A stretch of 64,000 nt of DNA from Dictyostelium discoideum (GCA_000004695.1 CM000152.2:2400001-2464000); one strand, 5' to 3'. Shown: positions 6,239 to 45,626, numbered from the stretch's first letter. The notes: generated by a model from the sequence alone, not told the origin. Made by a program: numbers and translations.

Positions 6239-9200
6239 TGGTGATAATAATAATAATAGATCAATTACATCACAAATACAAACACCACCAACAACACCAC
6301 AAAAGCAAACTATACCAACAACACCAACAACACCAACAACACCAACAACACCACAAACAAGACCTAGAACACCACCAACAACACCACAAACTAGATCTAG
6401 AACAACACCACCAACACCACCAACACCACCACAAACTAGATCTAGAACACCACCAACAACACCACCACCACAAACTAGATCTAGAACACCACCAACAACA
6501 CCACCACCACAAACTAGATCAAAAACAGCAACAATAACAACAACAACAACAACAACAACAACCACTAAAACACCACCAACAACACCACAAAAACAAACAC
6601 CAACCCCACAAAAACAAACACCACCAACCCCACAAAAACAAACACCACCAACAACACCACAAAAACAAAAAGCACCAACAACACCACAAAAACAAAAAGC
6701 ACCAACAACACCACAAAAACAAATAGCACCAACAACACCACAAAAACAAATAGCACCAACAACACCACAAAAACAAACAGCACCAACAACACCACAAAAA
6801 CAAACAGCACCAACAACACCACAAAAACAAACACCACAAAGAAAAACACCTAGAAAAAAGAAAACTCCACTAAGACCAATAATAAAAAAGAAAACTTTGG
6901 CAGAAATTATGGAAACAGAGAGACCAAAATTTGGTGAAACTGAAGATGACTTAATTCAAAATATACAACACACTGAAAGACCACCATCATTATCTTTATC
7001 ACTTCAAGGTAAACAATTACCAATTCCATTTAATTTAGATGAAGAAACTTTAAGTATTACTAGTAAACTTTCAAATTATTCCTTAAAATCACCAAATAGA
7101 AATAATTCAAATAATTCAAATAATAATAAAATAGATAAATCAAATGATACAATTAATAATAATAATAATACAAATAATATAAATAATATAAATGATAAAA
7201 ATAATAAGAGTAATAGTAATATTAAAAAAGTTGATAGTAAACCATTAAATAAGAGTGGTGATATTAGAAGCTTTTTCTCAAAAGTGAATAAAGATAGTTT
7301 AATTAGTAGTGCATCTAATGATAGTGACGATGAAATTCAACTTGTTAATATTAAAAGTCCAAATAAAAAGAGAACAAGAAGATCAGCTTTATTTGATGAT
7401 GATGATGATGATGATGATAATAATAATAATTTAAATGATATTGATAAAAGCACAAATGGCTTACTTGAAGTGAAGAGTGAAGATAGTGTAGAAATTTTAA
7501 ATAAACCATCAAGTGGTATTATTACTAGATCAAGAATCAATCAAAACTTAGATGAGTTTATGGAGAAAACTAAAGAAATTTCACCATCTCCTTCACCTAA
7601 AGCAAGTCCAAGTAAAGTTTCCAAATCTCCAACAAAATCAGTTAAACCATTTGAATTACCAAAACCAAATACTACTACTACAACCACCACAACTTCAAAT
7701 AATAAATCACCAAAGAAAAAGACAACAACCACTACAACTACAACTAGTAATTCAAATATAAAAGGATCAACACCAACTACTCCAAGTAAGAAATTAAGAA
7801 ATAGTTACGAGGATGATGATGATGATTATAATGAAGAAGATGATTTTTATTTTGAAGATAGATTTGATAATATAAATGATGAAGCAATAGCATCAGCATT
7901 GGCAGAGGATGAATTAGAAGAAGAGTTTTATCTTTCAAATTTCGAAGATAATAGTGAAAATAGCGAAGATGAAGATATGGAAGATATTGATCTTTCAGTA
8001 TTCAATCCAAAAGATGGTATACTTAACCTTCCACAACCAAAGAAAACAACAACTACAACAACTACAACAACAACAACAACAACAACAACAACAGGATCAA
8101 TGAATAGATTTAGTTTTAATGGTATGGCTGGTGGTGCAGATGATGATGATGACGACGACGATGATTATAATGATGACGATGATGATGAGTATCAAGGACC
8201 ACGTGATATTTCAGAACCGCATGTTGAATTGAATTCAAAAGATTCTAAAAAATCTGAAAAAGAAGATCATCTATTCAATATTCATAATAACTTTATAGAT
8301 GAATATCAAAAGATTCTCGCTGATGAACGTTTCTTTTCAAAGGATGACAATAATAATAATAATAATATCAATAGTAGTAAAATCAAAGCACTAGCAGAGA
8401 TTAAAACCCAAGTAGCACCAAAGAAAGGTGGAAAATGTAATTTTATGAACAACAATAGAGTAAATCCAGTTCCTCATAGAACACTTGATGAATTAAGAAA
8501 GAGAACAAGAATTCAAAGAGGTCAAACAGGTGAAGATTTATACAGAGAATTAGAGAATGAGAAAAACAAAACTCATGACAGTGATGATAGTGACGACAGT
8601 GACGACGATAGTGACGATGACCAAGTGGATGACAATGATAGTGAATTCAATGTTAAAGTTGTAAATGATAATAGATACTATGACAGAATCACAGCCATTG
8701 GTAATAATGCAGCTGTTGCACCAGCACCACCAAAAGATCCAGTGGTGGTACCACATCAAAAAGGTAAGAGAGTCAATTATTACAAGAGAATTACAATCAC
8801 TCCTCCTGGTCAACCAATGTCAATCATGGAGATGAAAGCTCTCAAATATATCGAGACTAGAAGAAAAGCAATAGCATTTGCAAGAAAGAAGAACCAAGAA
8901 TTGATCAATACACCATTCTTCACCAATATAACACAAGAGAATCCAGGTAGATACAATGCATTCGGTATCAATGAATATCAACTCAGAAGATTGGATTACT
9001 ATTGGGAAGTACTTCAAAGAAATGGTCTATTCACTCATGAATCTTTCCGTTATATTGCAAATGAATTGGGACTCAAATTTGAAACCATTCAAACCTGTCT
9101 CAAGAGTAGACGTGCAACTTATGCTGCTCATATCAACGAATTTCGTATTAATCATAAACCAATCACTTTAATGAGAAAAGATCAATTGGTTCATGAAATT

Positions 9201-9344
9201 CAAAAAAGAGGTGGTATTGCTTATATCTGTATTCCAAAATATACACTTCTCGATAGATTAAGAGATCTTTTAAAAAGAAATATTAATGCTGGCTCAACAA
9301 ATGTAACTTTAAATAATAGATTAGTTGCTGAATACACTCTTTGA
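5211..9344 (+). CDS. Large (1377 aa) low-complexity, probably nuclear protein with poly-Asn tracts, a Pro/Thr repeat array and acidic D/E runs. The C-terminal ~150 aa are a conserved-looking globular domain of unknown type (possibly HTH-like)
   Basis: Continuous ORF from ATG 5211, which follows a long poly-A tract, to TGA 9342-9344. The repeat array at 6290-6840 encodes (TPPTTPQTRSR)n and (PTTPQKQ[KTI]A)n. The C-terminus ...NAFGINEYQLRRLDYYWEVLQRNGLFTHESFRYIANELGLKFETIQTCLKSRRATYAA is non-repetitive. Confidence 0.6.
6290..6840 (+). repeat. Coding minisatellite: imperfect 27-33-nt units encoding Pro/Thr-rich repeats with about 20 S/T-P motifs, about 12 of them TPQK
   Basis: Direct reading: acaccacaaaaacaaa[ct]agcaccaacaac is repeated about 9 times at 6650-6830. 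accaccaccacaaactagatctagaacacc is repeated about 4 times at 6400-6510. Confidence 0.85.
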
Positions 9345-9347
9345 AAG

Positions 9348-9386
<39 letters not shown>

Positions 9387-9778
9387 AAAAAAAAAAAAAA
9401 ATAAAAAGTAATAATAAATAAATAATTAAATAATTAAAAAAAAAAAAAATAAAAAAAAAAAAAATAATAAATAAACTATTAAAAATTTATCACAATTAAA
9501 AAAATAAAACATTTTTAATTTAATTTTTTTTTATTTTATTTTATTTTATTTTATTTTATTATTTAATTTTACTATTAGGAATCAAAATTGGAAATATAAA
9601 ATCCTAATACTAAAATCAAAAAAAAAAAAATAAAATAAAATAAATAAACAATTACTATTATTTATTTATTTTATTTTATTTTATTTTTTTTATTTTTTTT
9701 TTATTTATTTTAAATTATTTAATTTTGATTGTTTTCAGGGGGGTGTGAAAATAATAAATAAATTCTAAAAATAGGAAT

Positions 9779-10612: not shown

Positions 10613-11077
10613 ATGTCAGAAACCAAACCAGCCTCATCCAAACCAGCCGCTGCTGCCAAACCAAAGAAAGTCATTCCACGTGTAAGCAGAACAGGTGAAC
10701 CAAAGAGCAAACCAGAATCACGTTCAGCTCGTGCCGGTATCACTTTCCCAGTATCTCGTGTTGATAGATTATTACGTGAAGGTAGATTCGCTCCACGTGT
10801 TGAAAGTACCGCACCAGTCTATTTAGCTGCCGTCCTTGAATATTTAGTATTTGAAATTTTAGAGTTAGCTCACAATACTTGTTCAATCAGTAAAAAGACC
10901 CGTATCACACCACAACACATCAACTGGGCCGTCGGTAATGATCTTGAATTAAATTCTCTCTTCCAACACGTTACCATCGCCTACGGTGGTGTTTTACCAA
11001 CTCCACAACAATCCACCGGTGAAAAGAAGAAGAAACCATCAAAGAAAGCAGCTGAAGGTTCATCTCAAATCTATTAA
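10613..11077 (+). CDS. H2AX: Histone H2A variant H2AX
   Basis: Histone H2A fold: [54 protein letters not shown]...[34 protein letters not shown]. The extended C-tail ends ...SSQIY, an SQ-x-hydrophobic motif as in H2AX. Lys/Ala/Pro-rich N-terminal extension. Single exon. Confidence 0.88.
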
Positions 11078-11128: not shown

Positions 11129-11508
11129 CAAATGTACATAATAATCATTCCGCATATATAAAAAAAAAAAAAAAAATTGAATATCATAGTAAAATATCAT
11201 ATTTAATTTTTAAATAATTTAAGTATGTGTGTTGTTTATTTTATACAATTGATTAATAATAATATCAACTGTTTTTATAACAAAAGGTTTTTTTCAAAAC
11301 CACCACAAAAAAACAAATTTAAATTTCATAGCTTATATAAATATTCTATCTTTTTTTATTTTAAAATTAAAACTTGTAAAATTATCATTTTCACAAAAAA
11401 AAGAGGTAATACCACAAAAATTTTTAAAATATTTTTTTTTTATTTTTTTATTTTTTTTTTTTGAAAAGTTTCAATGTTTTATTTTTTTTAATTGTTAATT
11501 TAAATGTG

Positions 11509-15887: not shown

Positions 15888-16615
15888 TTTTTTTCAATTT
15901 AAAAAATTAATAATATAATAATTAAAAATTTATATTTAAAATTTTTAAAAAATTATTAATAAAATATAAAAAAAAAAAATGTATTGTTTGATTAGTTATC
16001 TACAACATTTAATGAGGAAAGAAAAAATAAATTAAAAAAAAAAAATAAAAAAAAGTAAAAAATATAAAAAATAAATAAAAAAAAGGGGTTTGTGTGGTGT
16101 GAATGTGTTGTGTGCTTGATTTATGGAAATTACACACAAAATAATAAATCCAATTAAATTAAAAATCAATATAATTTTTTTTTTTTTTTTTTTAAACTTA
16201 AATAGTATAGAGAAATCATAATATAGTTTTTTGGATTTACTTTTTTATGTATTTTTAGTTTTTTATTTAATTATTTATTTTATTTATTATTTTATTTTTT
16301 TTATACAGTTTTTATATTTTATTATTTTTATTTTTTTTTTTTTCTTTTTTTTTTTTCTTTTTTTTTTATTTTTTTTTTTTTTTTTTATATATGTGATTTT
16401 GAATTTGTTTACTTATTTATTATTGTTACTTATTATTACAAAGCTTTATACAGTATATGTGTTTTTTATATTTTTTTTTTTTCTAATCTTTTTTTTATAT
16501 ATTATGACAAGGAAAAAAAAGAAATAAAAAAAGAGTAATATTATTTTTAAGATTATTATGATTATGATTATGAGTATTATATGTTATATAAATCGATCGG
16601 AGAAAGAAATATTAT

Positions 16616-16653
<38 letters not shown>

Positions 16654-16667
16654 ATTATTTGATTTGA

Positions 16668-17530
16668 TTATTGATCTTCATCAATGTACAATTCAGAATC
16701 ATTAGAGTTAAACAAAGAACTATGATGTTGTTTGCTATGGTTATTTTTATAAGTAGTGGAGGATTTAATTGGAGAAGAGTTAACTAATGGACTATTTTGA
16801 CAACTATTATTTAAACTACGACTAGAGGTGGCACCAGAGTAATAGTCTGAACTTGAATTTCTCTTTTTTCTAATTTCAAGATCCATTTGAATATCAAGTG
16901 ATGGTGAATTCAAAATTGAAGGAGATGAAGCTGACAAAGAAGATGAAGAAGTATGTGGGTCAATTGCAGAGAGTGATCTTTTTCTACCACCATTGCTAAT
17001 TGATATTTCATCAGAGAAAATTCTGGAATATAATTTTGAAGGGCTGGCAGAAGAGAGTATTAATGGAGAACCCAAAGTTGGAACGAATCCAGATGATGAT
17101 GATAATGGTGAGAGAGCACTGGAAGCTGGTGAAGCGCAATTTGAAGAGGAACCTTTTCTATTACCTTTTTGTGGTAATACCCATGGATCAACATTTTGTT
17201 TTAATCTCCAAAAGCCATTTTGTTTAAATTTATCCATACCAGATTCAAAAATATTTTTACTATGACTTAACATATCTTGGATTTGTTTATGCCAGTTGTC
17301 AGACTTTTTCTTGTTTAAGCATAGGATATCCCAATGGCCAGTCATAAAATCATATACATCAGTTTTTAATGAAAAGAATTGTTTATCTGGCATTTCATTA
17401 TGGAGAGTAAAGAATACAACACGCATTATACTTGCCCATGTTGGTGATTTAATTAATACTTCTGGTTGTCCTCTTAAACATAATAAACATTCATTTAATG
17501 TACATTGTATTGAATTATTATTATTATTGC

Positions 17531-17564
<34 letters not shown>

Positions 17565-17866
17565 TGATGAAAATAAGGTTGGTGAAGAACCACTATTAAT
17601 ATTTGGTGAGCTAATGGTACAAGATTTAAATGCACTGTTTAATGATGCAGATGACACATTTGGTGATGTTGATAATAAATTGGAATAACTTGTTGATGGT
17701 GAAATAGGGTTACCATTATAGTTATGAAATTTAATTGAATTATTATTATTATTATTATTATTATTATTTATATTATTATTATTATTATTATTATTTATAT
17801 TATTATTATTATTATTATTTATATTATTTATATTATTAATATTATTATTATTATTATTATTAAATA

Positions 17867-17904
<38 letters not shown>

Positions 17905-18257
17905 GTATTTTTATTTTTTGAAAAAGTTGGTGGTGATGAAGGAACTGAATGTGATGGCGATGAAGATAATATTGAACCAAAAGCATCAGAGGAGCTTCCT
18001 AAGAGAACGTCAGAAGAATTGGAAAGTGGTGAGGATGGAATCAAAGAATTCTTTGAAGAACCAAAAGAAAAGACCGTTGGAATTGGTGCTTCATTTGGAA
18101 CCTCTGGAAACAATGGGGAAGATGGCTTACTAATTGAATTCTGATTGATATTGCTACTTAGGATTGAATTATTTAAAGAGGACGATAATAAGGTTCTACT
18201 TGGAGATGAAGGAACAAAGTCAAATTCGTTATTATTATTATTATTATTATTATTATA

Positions 18258-18356
<99 letters not shown>

Positions 18357-18608
18357 ATTTTTAATTGACGAGATTATTGGTCTTGTAGTACTTAAAGATG
18401 GCAAAGAAGAAGATAATAAATTTGTGGTTGAATTGGATTTAGCAGTTTTTTTGAATGGAGAATCATTTGTATTTCCAATTCCATTTCCATTATGGTGTAA
18501 AATTCCACCAAATAAATTTGGACTTCCAACCAATATATTACTACCACTATTTTTAAAATTAAATAAAACTTGTGGTGCCAATTCTTCAATATTTTCTATA
18601 ATTTCCAT
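16668..18608 (-). CDS. Asn/Ser-rich hypothetical protein (646 aa) with a Cys-containing globular region near the C-terminal third
   Basis: Continuous ORF starting at ATG 18608. The globular block is CTLNECLLCLRGQPEVLIKSPTWASIMRVVFFTLHNEMPDKQFFSLKTDVYDFMTGHWDILCLNKKKSDNWHKQIQDMLSHSKNIFESGMDKFKQNGFWRLKQ and the rest is low complexity. Confidence 0.5.
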
Positions 18609-18779
18609 CTTTATTTTGGTTTTTTATTTTTTAAAAAAAAAAAAATTTTGGTTTGATTATTTTTTTATTTTTTAATTTTTTATTTTTTAATTTTTTTTTT
18701 TTTTTTTTATGAAAAAATTATTTGGAATTTTTAAATTAAATCTCTGTTTTGTATATCTTTATTTGGTACTATGAGTGGA

Positions 18780-18819
<40 letters not shown>

Positions 18820-19710
18820 TTAATATTATTTTTTATAAAAAAAAAAAAAAAAAAAAAATGATGTGTGGTTGAAAAAAAAAAAAAAAAATAAAAAAAAAAT
18901 AAAAAAAAAAAACTAAATTTTTTATATCTATAATTGATTCAATGGGGTAAAAAAAAAAAAAAAAAAATTAAAAAAATAACTATTAACTTTTTTTTTTTTT
19001 AATTTTTTTTTTTAAACAATTTTTTTTTTTTGTCGATTGTTTTTTTTTTTGTAGTTTTTTTTAATTTGGGGCTATTTTTGATTAAAATTTTCTTTTCAAT
19101 TTCAAAAGAAAAAAAAAAAAAAAAAAAAAAAAATAGTTGTGTGAAATCACCCACATATATTAAAAAAAAAAAAAAATAAAATAAAAAAAATTATTAAAAT
19201 TCTAAAAAAAAATTATTAAAATCCTAAAAAAAAAAAATAAATATAAAAATTACCTTTTGTTTTTAAAAAAAAAAAAAAAATAAAATAAAAAAATAGTTTT
19301 GTTGAATGGAGTGTTTATTTACGGGTGTGAGATATGCGAGTTGTTAAAAATAATATTTTCTAGGGTGGGCGTTTTTGGAATTGATGGAAAATAATTTCAA
19401 AAAAAAAAAAAATAGAAAGAGGTAAAAAAAAATAAAATAAAATAACAAACTAAAGTGACATTGGTTTTGGTGAAAAACTTTAAAGAAAAAAAAAAAAGAA
19501 ATAAAAAAAAAAATAAAATAAAATAAAATTAAGATAAAAAAAAATATGTTGATGGAAATAAAAAATAACGATAATAACTGGGTATTTATATGTATTTATT
19601 ATTTTATTTTATTTTTTTTGTAAAAATAATTGGAAAATTTTTATTTGGTAAAAAATAATACACGTATAAAAAGTAAAGATACGAGGATGATAAATAAACA
19701 ATAATAATAA

Positions 19711-19795
<85 letters not shown>

Positions 19796-20449
19796 AAAAT
19801 AATAAAAATAATAATAATATCAAAAATACTATAATTTAGGGATGATGGTGATGATGATAATTACTAGTATTATTTTTTGTCTGAATAAATAGGACGACGT
19901 TTATTGTTATTTGTACAAATATTGTTGTGATTTATGTTTATCTGTGTTGTTGGGTTTTTGGTGTTTTTAAAAGTTTAAAAAAAAAAAAAGAAAAAAAAAA
20001 AAGTGAATAAAAAAAAAAATAATAAAAAATAATAAAAAAAAAAATGAAATTAAAATAATGATAGTAGATATATATATGTATATAAATACATTGAAATAAC
20101 GAATAAATTAGTGTGGTGGGTGGTAATGTGTGGTCATTTTAATTGAAAGGGTGGGAAAAAAAAAAAATAATAATAATAAAAAAAAATTAAAAAATTAAAA
20201 AAAAAACAATTATTCAAAGTGATTCACAATAAAAAGAGGTTGTTAAGTTTAATTTACTGAAATACCATTCGTTTGGCTAGTGTGGTGTGAGTGTGGGTGT
20301 GGGTGTTTTTTTTTTTTTTTTTTTGTTATTTTTTTAATATTATTATTATTATTATTATTATTATTTTGATTCTTAGTGTTAAATTGGACAGATTAATGCA
20401 ATTATTCTTCGCAGAGTGGTTTAAGAAATTTTAATACACTGCAATTAAT

Positions 20450-20494
<45 letters not shown>

Positions 20495-20938
20495 CCATTT
20501 TTTTTTTTTTTTTTTTTTTTTATTCATTTATTTATTTATTTATTTATTTTATTTTATTTTTTAATTTTTTAATTTTTTTGGTTTCACAATGCACATAAAT
20601 AGATATATACATGAGTGAGTGGTTATATCAAAAGATACAGTTGGATGTGTTTTAATAAAATTTGCAAGATGTGGGTTTTTTTTTTTTAAAATTTTTTTTT
20701 TTTTTTTTTCTTTTAAATCTATCCAGAGCAAAAATGAATGATTTTTAAAACAATAATAAAAAAATCATTTATTGTTTTTATCGCCAATATTGAAACAATG
20801 TCCTAACAAGAATATCAAACGATTGGTTGAAAATAAAACACTAATAAAGTAAAGAGGAAAAAAAAAAAAAAAAAAAAAAAAAAACATGAAAAAAGATAAA
20901 AATAAAAACAAGACGAGCGAAAAAAAAAAAAAAACTAC

Positions 20939-20970
<32 letters not shown>

Positions 20971-21582
20971 AAAAATAAAAATAAAAATACTTATTGAATA
21001 AAAAAATAAAAAAATAAAAAAAATAGCTATTATAAAACTTACTTTTTTAAAATAAAATTAAACCAAATGTTTTCTTATTTACAGGTATTTTTAAATAGAA
21101 TGAAAAAATAAAAAAAAAATAATATACAAAACTAATTAATGATGATCAAAAACAAGTTGAATGATTGGTTGATTAAGAAGGTTGTGATTTATTATATAAT
21201 ACAGAGGGGTTGTTTTTTTTTTTTTTAAATTCACACCTTTTAATTTTTTTTTTTTTTTAAAAATTTTTTTTTTTTTTTTTTAATTTTAAAAAAGAGACAG
21301 GTTGAGCTTTCGTTTATTAATTCTGATAATAATAAAAATAATAATTTTCGTTTAAATTTATTGAGGGAATGTTTATTGGGTGGGGTGCATTAAAAAAAAA
21401 TAATAGAATGGCTCTTTTTTGAAAGAAGAAAAAAAAAAAAAAAAAAAAAAAGGTAACACACGAAATTTAACAAAAAAGAAAAAAATAAAATAAAATAAAA
21501 ATAAAAAATAATTAAAAAAAAAAAAAAAACTTTTTTTTTAATAATTGTATCTTAATGATCAGATTTTAATTGTAAATTACCA

Positions 21583-21613
<31 letters not shown>

Positions 21614-22067
21614 TTAAAAAAAAAAAAAAAATAAAAATAATTTTGATTTTTTGTGGCAATCAAAAAATATCGTGTGATTTCTTCTACTTTTGAGAATCTT
21701 TATGCCTATTGGCAAATTTTTTTTTTTTCGTTGAATTTTTTTTTTTATTATAATAAAATATTACTATATATGTAATTAATTAAAAATAGTAAAAGAAAAA
21801 ATTGAATATAGGGGTAGTTCAATATAATAAAATAAAAAAAAAAAAAAGAATAATTATATATAACAAAAAATTAATATTTGCAAAAAAGATATTTTACTAT
21901 TTTTCAAATTTTTTTATTTTCATTGTACAATCAAAAACAATGGGATTAATAGTAAGTGTTTAAAATTTTTTTTTTTTTTTAAATGGCAAGTATATTTTTT
22001 GAAAATGGAAAAAAAGAATTTTTTAAGATATTTTTTAATCAATTTTAATTTTTTTTATTTTTTTTTT

Positions 22068-22101
<34 letters not shown>

Positions 22102-22270
22102 AAAATTGTTTATTTATAGGGGCTGTAAATCACAAGGAGAGGGGGGGTCATAAAAATAACCAATCAGTGAACTAGCACTGAAAAATGGGTATTTATGCAT
22201 TCAATTTCGCTTAATCAATAAAAGATTTTTTTTTTATTTTATTACCTAAATAATAAATTACCTTAAAAAG

Positions 22271-22311
<41 letters not shown>

Positions 22312-22794
22312 TTATATTTCTAATTTTATTTTTATTATTTTTTTTTTTTTTTTTTAAATTTAAATTTTTATTTCTAATTTTATTCATCAAAAAAAAAATA
22401 AAAAAAACAAAATCTTTTATATTTCTCAACAGTTCTTTAAATAAACCAGTGATAATTAAATAATATTAAAATTATTTAATTAAAATAAAATATAATAGGT
22501 TTTAACCAAATTAGCCACTATTGTAAAGTGAGCTCAACGTGGCTCACTATACCATTATTGTTGTTTAAACCATAAAAAAAAAAAAAAAAAAATAAAAAAT
22601 AAAAAAAAAAAAAACTATTTTAAGAATTTCGCCATAGTAAATTTACAAAAAAAAAAAATCTCAAAATGATCATCTTTTTTTTTTTTTTTTTTTTAAAATT
22701 TATTTTCTATTTAATTTTTTTATTTTTAATTTTTATTTATTTTTTGTTTTATGTGCTTTGAAAAATAGTCACAAAAATAAACCATTTGTCGAAA

Positions 22795-22829
<35 letters not shown>

Positions 22830-22868
22830 TTATTTTATTTTATACTTAAAAAATTTGACATTTAGTGG

Positions 22869-22910
<42 letters not shown>

Positions 22911-23187
22911 TTTTAAAAAAAATATTTTTAATTATTTTTTTAAGTTTTTATTTACATTTTTATTCGAATTTTTTAAAAAAGAAATAAATAATAAATCTCC
23001 GAATAAACAAAATACTTTTTGAATGTAATAAATGAAGAATTCTTTTATCTTAATAAACACCAATTTCAAATTTGTATTCAAATATTAAATTTCTTTTTTC
23101 AAAAAAAATAATAAAATAAAAAAATAAAATTTTAAAAATAAAAAAATAAAACAATATTGCAAATAAATAATTTATTCTTATTTATTG

Positions 23188-23225
<38 letters not shown>

Positions 23226-23418
23226 ATTCAAACAAAAATAACTTTAATGTTTGAGAATAACCGACATCCATATTTGATTTTACACCCATCTATGTTATTA
23301 TCCAATTTTATATTTTGAGAAAAAAAAATAAAAAAAAAATAATAATATTGTGATCTAAGGTTTTCATAATTTTATTTTTTGAAAAAAAAAATTCTTTGTA
23401 TATTTTTGGAGAATTCCA

Positions 23419-23465
<47 letters not shown>

Positions 23466-24410
23466 ATAAATTTTTTGTGGAGGTTATTTTAAATATTATA
23501 TGATAATAGTTATTCCTTTAAAATCGCTTTTTTTTTTTTGAATTTTTTTTAAATTTTTTTTTTTTTTTTTTTTTGAATTTTAATTTTATTAAAAGTAATG
23601 GACCCAATAATTTGAGGATATTTTCAATCATTTTGATTATTAAATTTTTTTTTTTAAAAATTTTATTTTTTTTTATTTTTTTTTTTTTTTAAACACCCAC
23701 AAATCAAAAAAAAAAAAAAGAATTAAAATTATAAACGGCGAGAATTTATTGGGTTAAAATAATATCCAATTGACAATTTACTTTTAAACTAAAAAAGGAG
23801 TGGCTTTTTATAAATAAATTTTTTTGGGGAATCTCATTTTTTAAGCTAACTTATTATAACCAATTAAGGTAAAAACAAGAATGGGGCTTTGCACAACTAC
23901 CACCAATTTCAATTATTTTTTTTATTATATCACAAACAAAATTAACCATCACATCTGTTGCATACAATTTTTTTTTTATTATAATAATTTTCTTTAATTT
24001 TAAAATAATTTTTTTCCATACAAATTGATGAGAATTTTTTTTTTTTTTTTTTTTTTATTGTCGAAAAAAGATTGGTTATCACAAAAACACAGATTTATTT
24101 TTATATACACTTAAATTCAGATCACATTTTCTTTTTATGTACATTTTCAAAATAATATATATATATAATATTTTTCAGTAAAATATCATCTTCAATAAAA
24201 TTTAATATTATTTCTAAAATTTTTTAATTTTTTTTTTTTTTTTATTTTATTTTTTTTTTTTCTATTTTATACTTTTTTTTTTTAATTTTTTTTTTTTTAT
24301 TATTATAAATTAAATTAAATTTTTCTTTTCTATTCAATTTTTTTATTTATATCCATTTTTTTTTTTATTATTTAATAAAAAAATAAAATTATTTAATTAA
24401 AAAAAAAAAA

Positions 24411-24447
<37 letters not shown>

Positions 24448-24451
<4 letters not shown>

Positions 24452-24744
24452 AAAACACATTGTCAAAAATATTAAATTTTGAAAATAAAAATATAAACTG
24501 TAATAATAGTAATAATAATAATAATTATAAAAATAATAATAAAAATATTAATAATAGTTATAATAATTATAATAATATTTGTTTAGCAGACATAAAATCC
24601 GAAGTAGATTATTATTCATATAATAACAAACCAAACCTAAGGGTTTTAACAAGCTCCCCCTTACCACAGTATTCTCCAAAGAATACAACACCTTTATCTT
24701 CTCCATCTGATTGCCCAAATGATAAACTATTATTATCATATTTA

Positions 24745-24838
<94 letters not shown>

Positions 24839-25319
24839 GTAATAATTACAGTAATAATAATAATTTAAAATTCCAAAATGTAAATAATGATTTATTAAAT
24901 AGTAGTACAAATACAACACCAACCAAAATTCCAATAAATCTTTTTTTAAATCCTCTAATAAATGTAAATGAAAATTGTCCAACTAAATCTCTAGATGATG
25001 AACCTGTAAAAAAGAAATTAAAACCAGATTTTAAACCAGATGTAAATATTAAATATATTCAATTTGAATTTGATCAAACTCCTTTATTTATTGCATCATT
25101 TCATAATAATACTCAAAGTTTAAGAAATATGATTCATGTTGGTACTGATCTAAATCATCAATGTAGAAAAAAAGGTTGGTCTCCATTGATGTATGCTGCT
25201 CAAGAAAATAATTTTGAAATTATTGATCAAATATTATCAACAGGGTAAATATAATAATTATAATAATAAAAAAAAAAAAAAAAATATATATATTAATTAT
25301 TTATTAATTTAATTTTTAA

Positions 25320-25364
<45 letters not shown>

Positions 25365-26058
25365 GTTATTATTAGATGTACAAAAATTGATGCAGTTAAT
25401 TTAGAAGGTAATACAGCATTATATATTGCATGTTTAAATTCAAAAGTTAAAATTGTAAATAGATTATTAATTTCAGGATCAAATGTAAATATTCAAAATA
25501 AAGTTGGTTGTACACCATTAATGATATCTTCATCAATTGGAAATAAAGAAATTATTAAATTACTAATATCATATGGTGCTCAAGTTAATAAAACTGATAA
25601 TCATGGTTATAATGCATTAATGTATTGTTTAATCTACGGTTACAATTTAAAAAATTTAACAAATTATTGTAATGGTACTACTATCAACGAAACTGATAAT
25701 ATTAATATTAATAAAACCAAAATTATAAATATCTTAATTAAACAAGGTTCAAAATTAAACCAAATTTCAAAAGATGAATGGACACCACTAAAATTAGCAA
25801 TTAAACATTGTTTAAACATTGATTCAATTAAACCATTAATACACAATTGTAACTCTTTCAATGATGAATCATTTATTGACTCTCAAGGTTGGACTCCAAT
25901 TAAAATAGCAATAAGATATTCACCAATCAATATCATAGATTTCATATTATCATCTTATCCAAATTATATAAATCAAAAAAATGATTTACTAGATTATTTT
26001 AAATTAGCAATACAATTTAGATCAATTGAAGTATTCATTTATCTATATAATTTATTTT

Positions 26059-26105
<47 letters not shown>

Positions 26106-26258
26106 TGTAATAATAATTTTAAAGATATTTTTAACAAAAAAGATATCGATTTTTTAAATTCATTAGCTAATGAATATAGTAATAATAGTAATAATATAAA
26201 TTGTAATAATAGTGACACTTTTAAAATACAAGAGTATTTAAATAAACTTTTAGAATAA
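24448..26258 (+). CDS. Ankyrin-repeat protein, 2 exons (24448..25244, 25376..26258)
   Basis: Exon 1 ends ...IIDQILSTG with donor GTAAAT at 25245. The 131-bp intron contains (ATT)n and the acceptor is ...attag at 25374-25375. Exon 2 has several ANK repeats (G-TPLM-A---G---IIKLLISYGAQVN). N-terminal poly-Asn. Confidence 0.7.
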
Positions 26259-26330: not shown

Positions 26331-26935
26331 TTAAATATATTCATAACTAAGATTATCACTACTTGAAGTATCGTTCCATTGAATTGCAAATAAACTTGTA
26401 CCAACAAAATATTGTTCAATATTTGAGACTGAAATGAATTGATCACCAAATTGATAATTTGATAAATAGTTATCAATTAAAGGATATGTTGTAAATGTTG
26501 GAACTATATGATAATCTGATTGAAAATTACCTTGAATATGTAATGAGGTAAAAGTTGAAGAAGAATCGAAAACATTATCAAAACAACTATTTGGATCATT
26601 TGAAGCACAAATTGAAGCACTACAAAGTTGAGAATTAAAGAAATCATTAAAATTACCATTAAAACTAACCAATGAATATAAAAGACGATTCTTATCGATT
26701 CTATCACTTGTACTATAGGTAAAAGTACATGAAAAACCATTATTTTCACTAATTATAGTTTTATTAACTTGATTTTCACTAATTAAAAATGGTATAATAG
26801 TTGCATTAATACTAGTTGGTGTCTTGACATCATTTAAATTAACACCATCACCATCATATTGTTTAAATGGTTTATAATTAACAAAATCTATTGCTTCAAT
26901 ACCTGAATTAATTTTATTATTTGATGAAGACGACT

Positions 26936-26970
<35 letters not shown>

Positions 26971-28066
26971 GGATCTTTTGGTAATTTACCAACTAATAAT
27001 TTATTTGCAGGTTTTGTAGTTGGATTTTGAAAAGTATTAATGAAATTACCATTAGAATAAATACCAGAACCACTGATTGCACTAGTTGCACCAATATTTG
27101 CAGCTAAAACATTTGCATTGTAAAGTTTTGACCAAGATTCTTGAATACCACGTGCATATGCATAATTTACATTTACCCATTGAGTAGAGTAAACTAAATT
27201 ATGAATTCCATACTTTTGAATTAAAGTTTTTTGTGGTTCTTCAAATAAAATATCGAAACAAATAAACATACCAAATGTAACATTGAAATTTGTTGAAAAT
27301 ATAACTGGATCAGGTGGTGATGATGGATTAAAATATGGTTCACTATATAAATGAGATTTATGATATTTAGCTAATAATTCACCTTTCTCTGAGAATGCAA
27401 CTTGTGTATTATATTGAAATCTACCATCAGCTGGACAATTATTATTATTATCATTATTATTAATTGATGTACTATTATCACAATATTGTACATCACCCAT
27501 ATCCGCTACCAATACAATTGAATTTTGAATTGCAATACAACTTAAACTTTGTAAAATAGTTCTATTATCGAAATCCTCATTATTACATGGTATAATCTTA
27601 ACAATGATTGATTAATTGATTGATAGATTGATTGATTATGGTTGATTAATATCAATTATATTATTAAGGTCATTAAAAATGTAAAAAATAAAAAAATAAA
27701 ACAACATACTGGTTGTGAAGATTGATGTGGATCTGGTATAACTTCAAGATATGGTAATACTTGATCTCTTGTTGCAAATGCATTACCTAATAAACCATAC
27801 TCTGGGAATACTATAATTTGTGCTCCTTGACTTTTTGCTATTTGTACATATGAATTATATCGTTTAACATTTGCTAAAACATATTTAATTGGTGTTTCAT
27901 TTGGATCTTTAAAATTATATTCTGGTGGTGTATACTCTAATACTGCTCCAATATAGTAATCATCATCATCATTATTACCTTTTACAAATCCTAAAAGTGT
28001 CAAAATTATAATGAATATTAAAAAAACAACAAAAAATAATTGTTGTTTAGATTTTTTAATATTCAT
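26331..28066 (-). CDS. Secreted carbon-nitrogen hydrolase of the biotinidase/vanin (pantetheinase) family, 2 exons (28066..27710, 27596..26331)
   Basis: N-terminal signal peptide MNIKKSKQQLFFVVFLIFIIILTLLG. IVFPEYGL (catalytic Glu region) is in exon 1 and FGMFICFDILFEEP (catalytic Cys) is in exon 2. The donor GTATGT follows ...HQSSQP and the 113-bp intron ends ...gttaag. Confidence 0.72.
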
Positions 28067-28510
28067 ATTTTTTTTATTATTTTAAATTATTTATTTGTAA
28101 ATAATATATATATATATATATAATTGTATAAAAAAATAAAAAAAAAAAGAGAGTGAAAATAAAAAAAAAAATAAAAATTTTATTAAATTGCGATATGGCA
28201 GTCCCAGAATTTAAGAAAAATAAAAAATTAAAAAAAAATTAAAAAAATTAAAAAAATTAAAAATAAAAAAAATATTTTAAAAATATATTAAATAAACAAA
28301 AAAGAAAATGGTTTAAAACTGACTTTAAGAACAGTAATAATTTTGAATATTGACATTTAAAATTATTACTGGATACTTTTTTTTTTCATACAAAAGATTG
28401 TAAATGATATTAAATTTAAATTTTAAACCAATTAATTACTGTATACTAAAACCACCACGTAAAATTTTTTTTTGAAAATTAATTTTTATTATGGTTTTTT
28501 TTTAAAGATT

Positions 28511-29375
28511 TTATCTTGCTTTAACTTTCTTTTTATCTTCTAAGAAATAAATTTCAGATAATGGTACAGTTGGATATTTCTCTTCAATTAAATCAACAAG
28601 TTCCTCACCAAAATCTCCTTGAATATCGATATCTTCAGAATTTGGATTTGAGATTGATTTAACAACAGAACAACCACAACTAAATTTCTTTGCCATAACT
28701 TTAGCTGCATCTGATAATTTTATACCATATAATTCTAAACCTGTAATCTTTGTAACATGTTTTCTCTTATTTCTTTGATTAACTTCAATGATAATTTGTG
28801 GTTTAACTTCTTTTTTCTTTTTTGATACTTTTTCTTTTTCTTTTTCTTCACCAGTAGCTTCTTTTGATTCTGATTTACCAGCATCAACATGACTAACTTC
28901 TTTTGAATCATCAACAATCTTTAAATCTTTTAATTTCTCTTCTGTATTTTCTGTTGATGTAGTTGTTGTTGTTGTTGTATCTGTAGTAGTAGTAGTAGCA
29001 GTAGTATTTGATGAATCTTTACCTGATGCTGTATTTTTATTATTATTTGGATGTGGTCCATTCTCTTTTAAACATTGTTTTGCTGATGGTCCATATTCGC
29101 AATATTCAGTTGGTAAAGAACAAACTATTCATTTTATAAATTAATAATCCACCATTATCATTATCATTATAATTGTAATAAAGATAATAATAATAAAATA
29201 AAATAATCGAAATCAAATAACAATAACAATTATCACCATTAAAAAAAAAAAAAAAAAAGAAAATTTATATTAGAAAAATAATTTTAATAAAATTTTATAA
29301 TTTATTCAATTTACTTTTGCAATATTCTACAACAACTATTGGCTGTGATGGTGTTGATGACTCTGTATCACTCAT
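28511..29375 (-). CDS. Density-regulated protein DENR / Tma22 (SUI1-domain translation reinitiation factor), 2 exons (29375..29315, 29124..28511)
   Basis: Exon 1 encodes MSDTESSTPSQPIVVVEYCK with donor GTAAAT. Exon 2 begins (I)CSLPTEYCEYGPSAKQCLKENGP, the conserved DENR Cys motif. The C-terminus QRNKRKHVTKITGLELYGIKLSDAAKVMAKKFSCGCSVVK... is a SUI1 domain. The ORF track shows only the terminal 61 aa because no ATG/TTG/GTG precedes them in frame. Confidence 0.72.
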
Positions 29376-43616: not shown

Positions 43617-43913
43617 TTTTTTTTGTTTTGTTTGAATGATAATTATAATTCGTTTTTTAGAAAATAAAATTTTTTTTTTTTTTTTTTTTTTTTAATTAAA
43701 ATTTTTAAAAAATAATTTTGGAAATAGGATTTAAATAATAAGGGTATTAATATTAGATTTGAAAAATTGTTGGTTTCAAATAAAATAAAATATTTTCTAT
43801 TGTTTTGGAAATATTAATGTAGTTTATATACAAATAAAAAATTTTTTTTATACCATAAATTGACAAAAGTATAAAATTAAGTTTAGCTAAAAAAATTTTA
43901 TTACATCAAAAAT

Positions 43914-43986
43914 GCCTGGATGGCTCAGTAGGCAGAGCGAGCGGCTGTTAACCGCTAGGTCCATGGTTCGATCCCATGTCTAGGCG
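43914..43986 (+). tRNA. tRNA-Asn (anticodon GTT)
   Basis: Cloverleaf read by eye. Acceptor GCCTGGA/TCTAGGC, D-arm GCTC..GAGC, anticodon stem AGCGG/CCGCT with loop CTGTTAA (GTT), T-arm CATGG-TTCGATC-CCATG. Followed by T5 at 43991-43995. Confidence 0.9.
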
Positions 43987-44000
43987 ATACTTTTTAAATG

Positions 44001-44020
44001 CTCTTAATTAGATTAAGAGT
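44001..44020 (+). promoter_or_regulatory. External B box (ex-B) downstream of tRNA-Asn: hairpin ctcttaat-tag-attaagag followed by AGTTCGATCCCC
   Basis: GTTCGATCC matches the Pol III B-box consensus and duplicates the tRNA's own T-loop. It lies about 22-34 bp past the tRNA 3' end, the position described for Dictyostelium ex-B boxes. Confidence 0.55.
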
Positions 44021-45056
44021 TCGATCCCCTTTACCAACATATCATTACATTTGTCGACAAATAATAATAAAAAACCCACATTTGCTGTTATAATGGTTGC
44101 AAAATTGACTTGAGTTTGATGATATTGAATTTTTATTACTTTTATTATAATTTTTTTTCATATTTGTTTAATTCCCCCTCTTTATTAGTGTATTTTTTTT
44201 AAAAAATTTTAATGTTAAGTTTTCTCTAACCACTAAATATAGAATTTAATATCTAGAAAAAAAATAAAAGAAAAATATGAAAAAAGAAAAGAAATGGAAA
44301 AAAATAATAAAAAACTTTGCAAAAGATATGCTATTTTTTAAAAATCGATCGAATTTTATTTAGAATTTTGAAATTTCATTTGATTTTGTTCAAATAAAAG
44401 TAAATTATTTTTGTAATTAGTTTGTTATTGTAATAATCCTGAATTTAAAGGAAAAAAAAAAAAAAAAAAAATTGTTGGTATAATTATTAAAAATGGAAAA
44501 ATTTATTCGACCAAAACCATACCAGATGTAAAATTTTTTTGTATTCAGTTTATGCCAACCAAATCCAAAAAACAAATTATTTATGTGGGGAAATAAATTT
44601 AAAGAAAATTCAAATTAAATCAATGAGTCCAAATTTTATGGAATTATTAAATAATTGTAGAGATGGATGCAAATAATTATTAAACTTGTAATCAAATTTA
44701 TTATTAATAATATATTATAATTATTTTTCCCAATTAATTACTTTTGGAATTTGTCTATAAAAAAAAAAAAAAAAAAAAACCTGCTATCCATTTTTTTATT
44801 TAATTAGCTTTTATTGCTATTAAAAAATTAATTTAATATTTTTAATACTTTATCATAGACTGATGATTTTTTTTCATGTTTACTTTATAAAAAAAATAAA
44901 AAAAAATAAAGACAAGACTTCACATCAGTGACAGTAGCTACCCAATATTAAAATGGTATGTAGCATAAACTCTTTTTCTATGCAACCTCCCCTTATTTTT
45001 TATATCTTTTTTTTTTTTAACAACTTTTTATTTTTATTTAGTTTTGATCCCAATTT

Positions 45057-45356
45057 AGTATAGATAAATAGAGCACTCAAAAATACACAAAATGATATAA
45101 AATATAAAAAAAATGAATGGTCATTAAGTTTTTTTTTATTTTATTTTTTTTATTTTATTTTTTTATTTTATTTTTTATATTATTTTTTTTTTTTACTAAA
45201 TAATTATTTTTACAATTTAATTATTTATCATCTATTTTTTGTAATTATTTTTTTATTTTCAAAAACAACGAGCAGGGAATATTTTTTAATAAAAATATAG
45301 ATTTAAAAAAAAAAACAGAACTTTACATTAATTTTAAGTGCTCTATTTATCTAGAT
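45057..45356. repeat. About 22-bp inverted repeat (tagataaatagagcact[c/t]aaaa) whose arms flank about 245 bp of AT-rich DNA
   Basis: 45061-45083 is tagataaatagagcactcaaaaa. The reverse complement of 45334-45356 is tagataaatagagcacttaaaat, with 17 contiguous identical bases plus 4 more. Confidence 0.7.
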
Positions 45357-45626
45357 TATATAAAAAATATTGTCCTTGATTTCTTTCGTAATTTCAAAGG
45401 TTTTTAATAACCAATGGATTGTATGAAGCTACTTTTCAAATAAAAAAAAATCCTATTTTAGGAAAAAAAAATTTTATTTTTTTTTATTTTTTATTTTTTT
45501 TTTTTTTATTTTTATTTTTTTTTTATTTTTATTTTTTATTTTTTTTTTAAATATAACTTCACACCAACTATCATAGGAAAAAAAACATTTAGATAATAAA
45601 AGAAAAAAAAAAAAATTAAAACTACA

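Follow-up and report, generated by a model that had tools for sequence, protein, structure and literature searches.

Location, neighbours and composition of the spacer

The stretch of Dictyostelium discoideum DNA analysed here (the window, 64,000 nts, from the first letter of which all positions are counted) contains a pair of divergent genes separated by a long interval. Chromosome coordinates were fixed by the published positions of DDB_G0279673, DDB_G0279675 and DDB_G0279699.

16668-18608, − strand: left flanking gene, DDB_G0279673 (ASH2L-like winged-helix protein)
18609-24447, no strand: divergent spacer, corresponding to D. discoideum AX4 chr3:2,418,609-2,424,447
24448-26258, + strand: right flanking gene, encoding an ankyrin-repeat protein

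Measured between coding-like stretches, the coding-free gap is 5773 nts long and is the largest in the 64-kb window. Because the next largest gap is only 2063 nts (followed by 1908, 1662 and 1620 nts) and the median is 686 nts, the spacer is a clear length outlier. A first-pass annotation had described a gene-free divergent spacer of 5.8 kb, unusually long for the window, and this description holds, no gene being called in five assemblies. The range it gave for all other spacers (0.1-1.5 kb) was slightly too low. The gap is confirmed as a genuine stretch without protein-coding genes on D. discoideum chromosome 3.

The GC content is 0.147 in the spacer and 0.224 across the window. A/T runs of at least 10 nts (n = 74) cover 1269 nts of the spacer, and TRF reports (A)n and (T)n together with an (AAT)40 array at 19700-19819. 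The first-pass annotation had also pointed to isolated GC-richer islands. The sequences it quoted lie where it placed them, but the islands are not isolated, as about 24 patches that reach 30% GC or more in windows of 40 nts (patch GC 0.25-0.34) occur between 18.7 and 24.0 kb.

Coding sequence is absent from the spacer. The longest ORF is a low-complexity frame of 78 aa, in agreement with the earlier claim that no ORF longer than 80 codons survives scrutiny. The best codon-usage log-odds score, 23.5, belongs to the (AAT)n tract, whereas real exons score 110-1048, and straight translation meets 159 stops per 1946 codons on the + strand and 135 on the − strand. A conserved same-phase open frame with coding codon usage was not found in any of the five taxa compared below. 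Searches of the AX4 spacer, the orthologous intervals and the spacer of Tieghemostelium lacteum revealed no tRNA genes and, with the Rfam 15 covariance models, nothing at gathering score; even at a threshold of E ≤ 10, the Rfam matches in AX4, D. firmibasis and T. lacteum are at chance level only (E = 0.22-8.8).

Conservation across species and the origin of the interval

The length of the spacer, its synteny and its islands are all conserved. AX4 was compared with four related taxa, namely a second D. discoideum lineage, D. citrinum, D. dimigraforme and D. firmibasis, in which the orthologous intervals measure 5764, 5076, 5591 and 5727 nts. Since the interval is kept at 5.1-5.8 kb, its length is not a product of chance. 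No gene is called within it in the second D. discoideum assembly or the four related taxa. Conserved patches, defined as complex sequence with at least 90% identity in 20-nt windows in at least two of the three distant species, cover 1608 of the 5839 nts of the spacer (28%). The complex islands, about 1.6 kb in total, show 85-98% identity, and the homopolymer and microsatellite filler 63-73%, with 23-42% gaps. In ordinary nearby spacers the conserved-patch fraction is 0.09-0.62 per 250-nt bin; hence the spacer is long but not unusually dense in conserved sequence, 28% being no higher than in its neighbours. All five islands of the first-pass annotation are conserved in at least two of the three distant species, and one is deleted in D. 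citrinum.

In T. lacteum, a divergent winged-helix/ankyrin pair likewise flanks a spacer, of 3489 nts and with a single 65-aa ORF; the neighbouring spacers are mostly 0.1-0.6 kb and the second longest is 2.1 kb. The pairing of the two genes predates the divergence of dictyostelid groups 3 and 4. In D. purpureum, the 2.2 kb upstream of the orthologue contains G/T boxes and two other motifs in common with the 19.1-20.3 kb region. The two regions share 5.0 11-mers per kb, as compared to 0-1.6 for other spacers, a count that is reached by 9 of 300 Markov shuffles.

These comparisons bear on what the interval could be. A small peptide gene or a set of micro-exons might have escaped annotation, and two candidates can be proposed. 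At 21941-22120, an ATG followed by a GTAAGT intron (ATGGGATTAATA, then GTAAGT ... ATAG) resembles a Dictyostelium first exon and intron, but neither the donor nor the downstream exon is kept in D. citrinum or D. dimigraforme. A 38-aa ORF starting with MGLC (23881-23997) begins at an ATG that is conserved, and no stop interrupts it for 38-44 codons in any of the five taxa, yet its frame differs between species although its nucleotides are conserved, and stops are rare in any frame because the sequence is T-rich. Codon-usage scores are at background, and none of 16 small ORFs from the gap is present in a collection of 15 billion proteins. A hidden protein-coding gene is thus very improbable. The decayed mobile element suggested by the first-pass annotation, or else a pseudogene, with the GC-richer islands as its remains, fares just as poorly. 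Such an origin could draw on the (AAT)n and (GAT)n triplet repeats, which are typical of Dictyostelium coding sequence, and on the + strand of the 19.1-20.4 kb region, which is purine-rich like a coding strand. Against this, the interval is syntenic and of similar length in five taxa, where it carries the same islands, and the arrangement recurs in T. lacteum. The search for terminal or interspersed repeats, which covered the 64-kb window together with some 200 kb of loci, returned low-complexity sequence only, and no ORF remnant was found in any species. Neither terminal repeats, element ORFs nor presence/absence differences, as a remnant of DIRS, Skipper, DGLT-A, TRE, DDT or thug would show, mark the interval, which is collinear in the five taxa. 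Moreover, sequence change is slower in the islands than around them, contrary to what neutral decay would produce. We consider such an origin hardly credible.

Conserved patches, lncRNA DDB_G3973649 and G/T boxes

The left and central parts of the spacer contain the following features (islands are numbered as in the first-pass annotation).

18745-18789, 18846-18886, 18921-18949, 19018-19038 and 19064-19090, − strand: putative promoter-proximal patches of DDB_G0279673, recognized by conservation; 18846-18886 contains an invariant ATGATGTGTGGTTG and 19018-19038 is TTGTCGATT
19137-20240, + strand: lncRNA DDB_G3973649 (CUFF_315_1 / CUFF_2369_1; Rosengarten et al. 2017, Files S4 and S6)
19310-19336, no strand: core of island 1 (19300-19385), AGTGTTTATTTACGGGTGTGAGATATG
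19700-19819, no strand: (AAT)40 microsatellite inside the lncRNA (TRF score 203)
19841-19980, no strand: island 2, conserved, with a perfect 14-nt palindrome TATTTGTACAAATA at 19908-19921
20045-20146, no strand: island 3, conserved, with TATAAATACATTGAAATAACGAATAA and then G/T box 1 GTGTGGTGGGTGGTAATGTGTGG (20111-20133)
20200-20316, no strand: conserved island including island 4, with G/T box 2 GTGTGGTGTGAGTGTGGGTGTGGGTG (20280-20305)
20571-20755, no strand: island 5 and a neighbouring patch, with AAGATGTGGGT at 20666-20676
21555-23526: scattered short central patches, e.g., 21555-21591, 21636-21684, 21912-21938, 22242-22270, 23240-23282 and 23507-23526

The patches between 18745 and 19090 lie 140-480 nts upstream of the DDB_G0279673 ATG (18608) and show 85-98% identity to D. 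citrinum, D. dimigraforme and D. firmibasis, with the single exception of 19018-19038 in D. dimigraforme (0.71). They would serve as the promoter of this gene. The core of island 1 keeps an identity of 93% in D. dimigraforme and of 89% in D. firmibasis, and it is the one deleted in D. citrinum. Identity over 19893-19980 is 0.95 in D. citrinum, 0.92 in D. dimigraforme and 0.69 in D. firmibasis; all five taxa share an unchanged palindrome core, TTGTACAAATATTGTTGT, but in D. firmibasis the 14-mer is without its first bases. Island 3 is kept in the five taxa, and its AACGAATAA with the G/T box, as well as TATAAATACATT(T)GAA, recur upstream of the D. purpureum orthologue. Identity reaches 90-95% over 20200-20283; G/T box 2 is found in all taxa with variable length, and its 11-mers recur in the D. 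purpureum upstream region. The patches of 20571-20755 are 82-93% identical in at least two of the three distant species. The GC-richest island (22098-22217) is poorly conserved except for ACCAATCA and a G/C homopolymer run.

The lncRNA DDB_G3973649 is already published from RNA-seq data as a single-exon model of 1103 nts on the + strand (chr3:2,419,137-2,420,240; PMC5295588). It is divergent to DDB_G0279673 and covers islands 1, 2 and 3 (19300-19385, 19840-19960 and 20100-20160). Its expression correlates with DDB_G0279673 (Spearman 0.526) and hardly with DDB_G0279675 (0.068), the published neighbour table passing over the ankyrin gene (PMC5295588). Intergenic lncRNAs were defined in that study as models of at least 200 nts, fully intergenic and without a tiling path to a neighbouring gene (PMC5295588); DDB_G3973649 has the length required, and its coordinates fall inside 18609-24447. 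Within 19137-20240 there is no ORF longer than 60 aa and no conserved frame, and in codon usage the (AAT)n tract alone has a positive score. The earlier suggestion of a spliced or non-coding transcript gains support as to a non-coding transcript in the left part but not as to spliced exons, the model having one exon and no frame that is open or conserved in the five taxa. Identity is 63-71% in the 5′ half and 76-87% in the 3′ half, where nucleotides are kept regardless of reading frame, and a conserved AATAAA (20228-20233) lies just 5′ of the model end. The (AAT)40 site differs in length and unit between species: D. dimigraforme has an expanded triplet tract of roughly 300-400 nts, and in D. 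firmibasis (GAT)n adjoins the site. The lncRNA itself could be the functional product, which counts against a cis-regulatory reading of the spacer.

The consensus of the GBF element is (T/G)G(T/G)G(T/G)G(T/G) (PMC2257962). Three matches are found in 20115-20133 (box 1) and five overlapping ones in 20292-20306 (box 2), so that, by motif match, the spacer contains paired GBF half-sites in conserved boxes. The conserved G/T boxes are those at 18862, 20111-20133 and 20280-20305. GBF-type heptamers number 62 in the window (25 ± 6 expected), 18 of them inside the spacer, which makes up 9% of the window. Since the heptamers overlap each other, this count is inflated, and an enrichment of only about 2-fold is left when clusters are counted instead. 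The T. lacteum locus shows no enrichment (21 found, 18.6 expected). The islands may bind transcription factors, GBF or others, every such assignment resting on motif matches in AT-rich DNA. Among the options of the first-pass annotation, that of regulatory modules gains support by inference, with all five islands conserved, two of them carrying paired GBF-type boxes, and similar boxes in D. purpureum.

The block upstream of the ankyrin gene and the function of the spacer

Three further features lie next to the ankyrin gene.

23695-23702, + strand: DUSE-like motif ACCCACAA, read on the − strand as a CA-rich / G-box TGTGGGTGT
23725-24206, no strand: non-coding block of about 480 nts, the most conserved element, 240-720 nts upstream of the ankyrin ATG
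24207-24447, + strand: low-complexity leader adjoining the ankyrin start codon

The block is absent from the list of islands in the first-pass annotation. Its identity between AX4 and the other four taxa is 0.88-0.98, at or above that of the flanking coding genes (0.84-0.97), with a mean column identity of 88% and an invariant segment at 24052-24113. Its one ORF shifts frame between species. Two observations count against a regulatory explanation of the spacer: binding-site footprints are typically shorter than an unbroken 480-nt stretch at about 90% identity, and a conserved DUSE-like motif, which belongs to the promoters of ncRNA genes, stands ahead of the block. This motif is the sole strict [AT]CCCA[CT]AA match in the non-coding sequence of the window. 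It reads ACCCACAA in three taxa, TCCCACAA in D. dimigraforme and ACCCAAAA in D. firmibasis, and is flanked by a poorly conserved T-run and A-run. In the leader, identity to the three distant species is 0.71-0.74 with 20-28% gaps, as against 2% gaps with the second D. discoideum lineage; the usual T-runs are followed by an A-run before the ATG. The leader likely comprises the core promoter and 5′UTR.

Neither the block nor the conserved half of the lncRNA carries an RNA-structure signal. With RNAalifold, five closely related sequences gave no covariation for the 3′ half of the lncRNA (term +1.19; double changes at 0 of 51 predicted pairs) or for the block (term +4.2; a double change at 1 of 85 predicted pairs). 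This bears on the possibility that the islands act as RNA, the interval being mainly an lncRNA locus in which DDB_G3973649, perhaps with other low-abundance transcripts, regulates DDB_G0279673 or other genes. A documented 1.1-kb transcript over three of the five islands, co-expressed with its divergent neighbour and with a conserved 3′ half and AATAAA, argues for it. However, conservation is poor in the 5′ half and at the annotated start that it contains, the conserved patches extend far past the transcript, and the interval holds a single model of a kind whose median maximum is 1 RPKM (PMC5295588). The correlation between divergent neighbours is not general according to the authors of the lncRNA study (PMC5295588). 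We regard this reading as possible but unlikely. A related proposal sees in the block an ncRNA gene that is missing from the annotation and controlled by the DUSE at 23695. Its product would be a Pol III RNA of about 50 nts, terminating at the T5 run near 23812, or else a longer RNA made by Pol II. DUSE is reported about 60 nts upstream of ncRNA genes, and the strict match stands in AT-rich non-coding DNA, is kept in all five taxa and is followed about 30 nts on by an A/T-rich TATA-like stretch, with strong conservation beginning just downstream in a block that is conserved at the coding level though non-coding. Conversely, about 0.17 DUSE matches are expected by chance in the spacer (a rough composition-based estimate), and a CA-rich / G-box site can be read in the motif as well. 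The block has no match to an Rfam family in any species, in four taxa the putative 59-nt RNA shows no gain in folding over shuffled sequences (z −0.9 to +0.6), and no lncRNA model was reported at the block in rRNA-depleted RNA-seq (PMC5295588). Class I/II RNAs, of 42-65 nts, carry an 11-12-nt motif CCTTACAGC(A/C)AA next to a 5′/3′ terminal stem; neither CCTTACAGCAA nor the partial motif CCTTA[CT]AG occurs in the window, and the candidate 59-mer lacks a terminal stem. Such a gene is improbable; lying outside Rfam and Class I/II, it would act through its primary sequence and not a stable fold, an equally doubtful prospect.

The published lncRNA and the islands conserved across species argue for a regulatory spacer as opposed to a hidden gene or a dead transposon. 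Our preferred explanation, with a probability of roughly 60%, is an old cis-regulatory spacer with a divergent lncRNA, shared by the ASH2L-like winged-helix/ankyrin pair. Selection would keep the short complex islands, while the A/T homopolymers and microsatellites between them would change freely. Besides a putative proximal promoter of DDB_G0279673, the left third carries the unspliced 1.1-kb lncRNA, transcribed in the opposite direction and co-expressed with this gene. The conserved 3′ half of the lncRNA overlaps a putative module of paired GBF-type G/T boxes, a TATA-like box and the palindrome. The block on the right most likely acts at the DNA level as an upstream control region of the ankyrin gene. 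The assignment of individual islands to one or the other gene is putative.

Several known systems resemble parts of this arrangement. DDB_G3973649 is one of 621 models of Rosengarten et al. 2017 (PMC5295588), unspliced and without an ORF, and is GC-richer than random intergenic DNA, as described there for lncRNAs (17% vs 13%). Unlike for these models, the spacer is five times as long as the transcript, and most conserved sequence, including the best block, lies outside it. Among the GBF response elements and CA-rich elements of post-aggregative Dictyostelium promoters, those of sigN (PMC2257962) similarly are closely spaced paired sites between divergent genes. In the spacer, the G/T boxes are conserved in five taxa and echoed in D. 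purpureum, but the nearest ATG is 1.5-1.7 kb away, the boxes fall within an lncRNA or at its end, and they are not enriched in T. lacteum. With DUSE-dependent ncRNA genes (Class I/II, spliceosomal snRNAs) the right end shares a conserved [AT]CCCA[CT]AA and conserved sequence within about 30-60 nts, whereas the block has no Class I motif or stem, snRNA/snoRNA match, stable fold or reported transcript. Animal genomes contain conserved non-coding elements around regulator genes, in so-called gene deserts. The spacer is about 100 times smaller in scale, and its conservation at the sequence level is shown within the D. discoideum clade. By analogy, it may be likened to such deserts, as a long gene-free interval beside the gene of a putative DNA-binding/chromatin protein, with mosaic conservation and with gene order and spacer length retained over a long evolutionary distance.

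The gene-free spacer and its neighbours

The spacer at window positions 18609-24447 separates two divergently oriented genes, DDB_G0279673 (-) and a gene (+) with one 131-nt intron, whose product is an ankyrin-repeat protein. In DDB_G0279673, the ASH2L-like winged-helix domain PF21198 is sub-threshold (E 2.5e-4), and it is above the cut-off in the P. violaceum orthologue. Because three gene positions in the supplements of PMC5295588 equal the window ORF coordinates plus 2,400,000, the spacer corresponds to chr3:2,418,609-2,424,447.

Genes placing the locus on chromosome 3 (from the PMC5295588 supplements)
chr3:2,416,668-2,418,608, - strand, DDB_G0279673 (left flank)
chr3:2,426,331-2,428,066, - strand, DDB_G0279675 (window 26331..28066, the vanin-like neighbour)
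chr3:2,459,375-2,461,348, + strand, DDB_G0279699

The first-pass annotation described a long gene-free divergent spacer, which proved correct, the feature being both real and conserved. Coding-like stretches lie 5773 nt apart across it, while the next largest gaps measure 2063, 1908, 1662 and 1620 nt (median 686 nt), so the spacer is a clear length outlier; it is indeed the longest, but the range of 0.1-1.5 kb proposed for the other spacers was slightly low. Its GC content is 14.7%, compared with 22.4% for the window, and it holds 74 A/T runs of at least 10 nt and tandem arrays (TRF) of (A)n, (T)n and (AAT)40. The longest ORF is 78 aa and all ORFs are of low complexity. With a codon-usage log-odds trained on the long ORFs of the window, the best spacer score was 23.5, for an (AAT)n tract, versus 110-1048 for real exons, and straight translation of 1946 codons gave 159 and 135 stops for the two strands. 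ARAGORN found no tRNA in the spacer and Rfam no match even at E<=10; the same two tools found no ncRNA family in the four orthologous loci or in the T. lacteum spacer.

Several observations concern the surrounding genes. The H2A-type ORF at 10613..11077 is identical to D. discoideum AX4 H2AX (Q54WG6), and a histone 3′-UTR stem-loop (RF00032; 34.5 bits, gathering score 34) lies about 200 nt downstream of this gene, at 11281-11326 (+). A published antisense RNA model, CUFF_2368_1 (chr3:2,416,110-2,416,766, window 16110-16766, +), overlaps the 3′ end of DDB_G0279673 and correlates with it at 0.67. The lncRNA table of Rosengarten et al. gives DDB_G0279675 as the right-hand neighbour, skipping the ankyrin gene (24448-26258, +), which may be absent from their gene set or filtered as unexpressed. 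Only the two D. discoideum lineages have an annotated DENR/SUI1 gene (window 28067-29300; 8774-9634 in the diverged lineage locus), placed between the vanin-like gene and the 283-aa ankyrin gene. The corresponding site in D. citrinum, D. dimigraforme and D. firmibasis is a spacer of about 0.5 kb, and window 28067-29066 does not align to them (identity at most 0.08), which suggests a lineage-specific insertion or loss. Genes for tRNA-Asn(GTT) and tRNA-Cys(GCA) lie at 43913-43987 (+), within the 1.9-kb spacer 43692-45599, and at 50296-50369 (+), respectively.

Synteny and age of the spacer

Homology searches with the 646-aa flank protein returned no close orthologues, and the candidate P0048 was rejected as a non-syntenic, low-complexity match. 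Syntenic loci were obtained via orthologues of the vanin-like neighbour and of the H2AX cluster. The ankyrin and winged-helix genes are divergent neighbours in the diverged D. discoideum lineage, D. citrinum, D. dimigraforme and D. firmibasis, with gene-free intervals of 5764, 5076, 5591 and 5727 nt, respectively. Comparison with D. citrinum and the other relatives, as the first-pass annotation had proposed, thus finds the interval syntenic and gene-free at 5.1-5.8 kb, and the orthologous intervals contain neither a credible ORF nor an Rfam match in any species. A second D. discoideum assembly, in which no gene is called in the interval, differs from AX4 almost only by homopolymer lengths, most apparent SNPs being alignment slippage, and is therefore uninformative on constraint.

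In the group 3 species T. lacteum, the winged-helix orthologue (37-57% identity to the D. discoideum protein by tblastn, E 4e-48) again lies opposite a divergent ankyrin gene, across a spacer of 3489 nt with one 65-aa ORF. The other spacers of that locus are mostly 0.1-0.6 kb, the next longest being 2.1 kb. The shared divergent pair and long empty spacer indicate that the arrangement is old. The two spacers share 36 k-mers (Markov null 16.8 +/- 5.5), but these are not collinear and hence were not counted as evidence. Contigs end 2.2 kb (D. purpureum) and 0.46 kb (P. violaceum) upstream of the winged-helix orthologue, a hint that assembly of the spacer is difficult there too.

Mosaic conservation and the left-hand module

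Conservation was derived from a five-way MAFFT alignment (AX4, the diverged D. discoideum lineage, D. citrinum, D. dimigraforme and D. firmibasis) and pairwise global alignments, and its pattern is a mosaic.

Identity of AX4 to D. citrinum, D. dimigraforme and D. firmibasis
18609-19060, 0.85-0.87
19061-19850, 0.63-0.71, with 27-42% gaps
19851-20450, 0.76-0.87
20451-23700, 0.67-0.73
23733-24195, 0.88-0.92
24196-24447, 0.71-0.74
three flanking genes, for comparison, 0.84-0.91

Complex patches counted as conserved, whose 20-nt windows are at least 90% identical in two or more of the three distant species (the last three of the five taxa), occupy 1608 of the 5839 nt. Their density in ordinary nearby spacers is similar or higher (0.09-0.62 per 250-nt bin); the spacer is thus unusual by its length, not by its density of conserved sequence. 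Five GC-richer islands singled out in the first-pass annotation (19300-19385, 19840-19960, 20100-20160, 20275-20315 and 20590-20665) were found at their coordinates with the sequences quoted. They are not isolated, since the spacer has about 24 similar patches, and each of the five is conserved in two or more of the three distant species. The first multiple alignment had left 19300-19385 and 20590-20665 unconserved, a result overturned by pairwise realignment, which found them conserved in two of these species. D. citrinum carries a deletion of the 19300-19385 core, and 20275-20315 persists as a G/T-rich tract whose length varies. Conservation is among the lowest in the GC-richest island, 22098-22217.

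Two sequence peculiarities were seen along the way. A G7 run in AX4 (22141-22147) corresponds to C7-C9 runs adjoining TAAATCACA in D. dimigraforme and D. firmibasis, and a C11 run lies about 0.95 kb upstream of the winged-helix orthologue in D. purpureum; such G/C homopolymers are striking in DNA of 85% A+T. The heptamer TTGTCGA occurs five times in the window, three of them in the spacer (19030-19036, 22786-22792 and 24058-24064), and two conserved copies lie 422 nt from one flanking start codon and 384 nt from the other.

Three explanations had been offered for the islands: exons of a spliced or non-coding transcript, a decayed mobile element, or regulatory modules. Spliced or otherwise hidden exons find no support, as no open frame is conserved and, in an exact look-up of 18 window ORFs in the protein collection, none was present, including all 16 small ORFs of the gap. 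A candidate mini-gene at 21941-22175 (MGLI plus an intron, ATG...GTAAGT) has a second exon that is not conserved and a splice donor lost in two species; a hairpin at 22527-22548 is likewise not conserved. The collinearity of the interval in five taxa speaks against a mobile element or pseudogene, as do the islands, which evolve more slowly than their surroundings. Repeat searches, and blastn of the spacer against itself, the rest of the window and the other loci, returned low-complexity matches only.

A non-coding transcript does account for the left part, where the published lncRNA DDB_G3973649 (chr3:2,419,137-2,420,240, + strand, 1103 nt, one exon; Rosengarten et al. 2017, PMC5295588, Files S4 and S6) covers three of the islands. 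In window terms it spans 19137-20240, running on the strand opposite to DDB_G0279673 from a start 529 nt away from the ATG of that gene, and a conserved AATAAA (20228-20233) stands just before its end. It correlates with DDB_G0279673 at a Spearman coefficient of 0.526 and with DDB_G0279675 at 0.068 (PMC5295588). The 5′ half, with the (AAT)40 array, is fast-evolving, while the conserved 3′ half yielded no consensus fold and no compensatory change. Files S4 and S6 contain no second lncRNA model in the spacer, and the miRNA catalogue of Liao et al. 2018 (supplement) has no entry at its coordinates.

The regulatory explanation agrees with the conservation of the islands and with their motifs. [quoted passage not shown] Heptamers of this type number 62 in the window, against 25 +/- 6 in shuffles, and 18 of them fall in the spacer, in about nine clusters.

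GBF-type matches in the left-hand part of the spacer
18858-18871, invariant ATGATGTGTGGTTG
20115-20133
20292-20306

Upstream of the D. purpureum orthologue, a stretch of 2.2 kb holds similar G/T boxes, together with AACGAATAA adjoining a G/T box and TATAAATACATT(T)GAA. Region 18609-20800 shares 5.0 11-mers per kb with this upstream sequence, compared with 0-1.6 per kb for other D. discoideum spacers; 9 of 300 Markov shuffles attain the number observed for 18609-20800. The T. lacteum locus is not enriched in GBF-type heptamers. A perfect 14-nt palindrome lies at 19908-19921, its core TTGTACAAATATTGTTGT invariant in five taxa. By their sequence, the G/T boxes, the sharing with D. purpureum and the palindrome fit a putative cis-regulatory module.

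The right-hand block and the reading of the spacer

The best-conserved element, 23725-24206, lies outside the five islands, with a mean column identity of 88% and an invariant stretch at 24052-24113. Just upstream, between a poorly conserved T-run and A-run, is ACCCACAA (23695-23702), the sole strict DUSE match in the non-coding sequence of the window, which reads ACCCACAA, TCCCACAA or ACCCAAAA across the five taxa. The block contains three putative transcription-factor motifs that are kept in four or five taxa: a CArG-like CC(A/T)6GG and the cores TAACGG and TTATC. AX4 alone has AAACGG at 23733-23740, where the other four taxa have TAACGG, and alone has CTAAAAAAGG at 23789-23798, where they have CC(A/T)6GG. 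An nhmmer search with a profile of the block found no copy elsewhere, covering the remainder of the window and the D. purpureum loci, and two metagenome scans with its invariant motifs gave 0 matches.

The main alternative for the block is an ncRNA gene driven by the DUSE, an element located about 60 nt upstream of Dictyostelium ncRNA genes; the presence of the DUSE-like motif in five taxa just ahead of the best-conserved sequence speaks for it. However, the block has no Rfam match, the Class I motif is absent, and in four taxa the predicted fold of the putative 59-nt product is no better than that of shuffled sequences. The covariation term is positive, with a double change in 1 of 85 predicted pairs, and published rRNA-depleted data hold no lncRNA model at the block. 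Nor does it appear to be coding, as its sole ORF (MGLC..., 23881-23997) is frame-shifted between species while the nucleotides are unchanged. On the other strand, the DUSE-like motif also reads as a CA-rich / G-box site. Given this reading, the factor-like motifs and the evidence against an RNA gene and against coding, we take the block to be a candidate control region upstream of the ankyrin gene, whose core promoter and leader would then lie in the poorly conserved T-run/A-run stretch 24207-24447.

Dictyostelium genomes are compact, and cis-regulatory elements are hard to find in their very AT-rich non-coding DNA. The median spacer in the window is about 0.7 kb, and the one between the winged-helix and ankyrin genes has stayed long in dictyostelids of both group 3 and group 4. 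With close relatives that have recently become available (D. citrinum, D. dimigraforme and D. firmibasis), conserved islands can be split cleanly from fast-changing filler. The result is a short list of elements, open to testing, that may control a putative chromatin/DNA-binding regulator, its divergent lncRNA and the ankyrin gene. We read the whole as a long regulatory spacer with a divergent lncRNA, with a probability of about 0.6, the main uncertainty being that some conserved parts may act as RNA.

The value of the locus lies in a worked example and in promoter dissection, and current understanding is unchanged. The nature of the spacer is ordinary for eukaryotic genomes and its divergent lncRNA was already known from published work. 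Three observations are new: gene pair and spacer length are conserved as far back as T. lacteum, the conserved islands have been mapped, and a block conserved at coding level is accompanied by a DUSE-like element.
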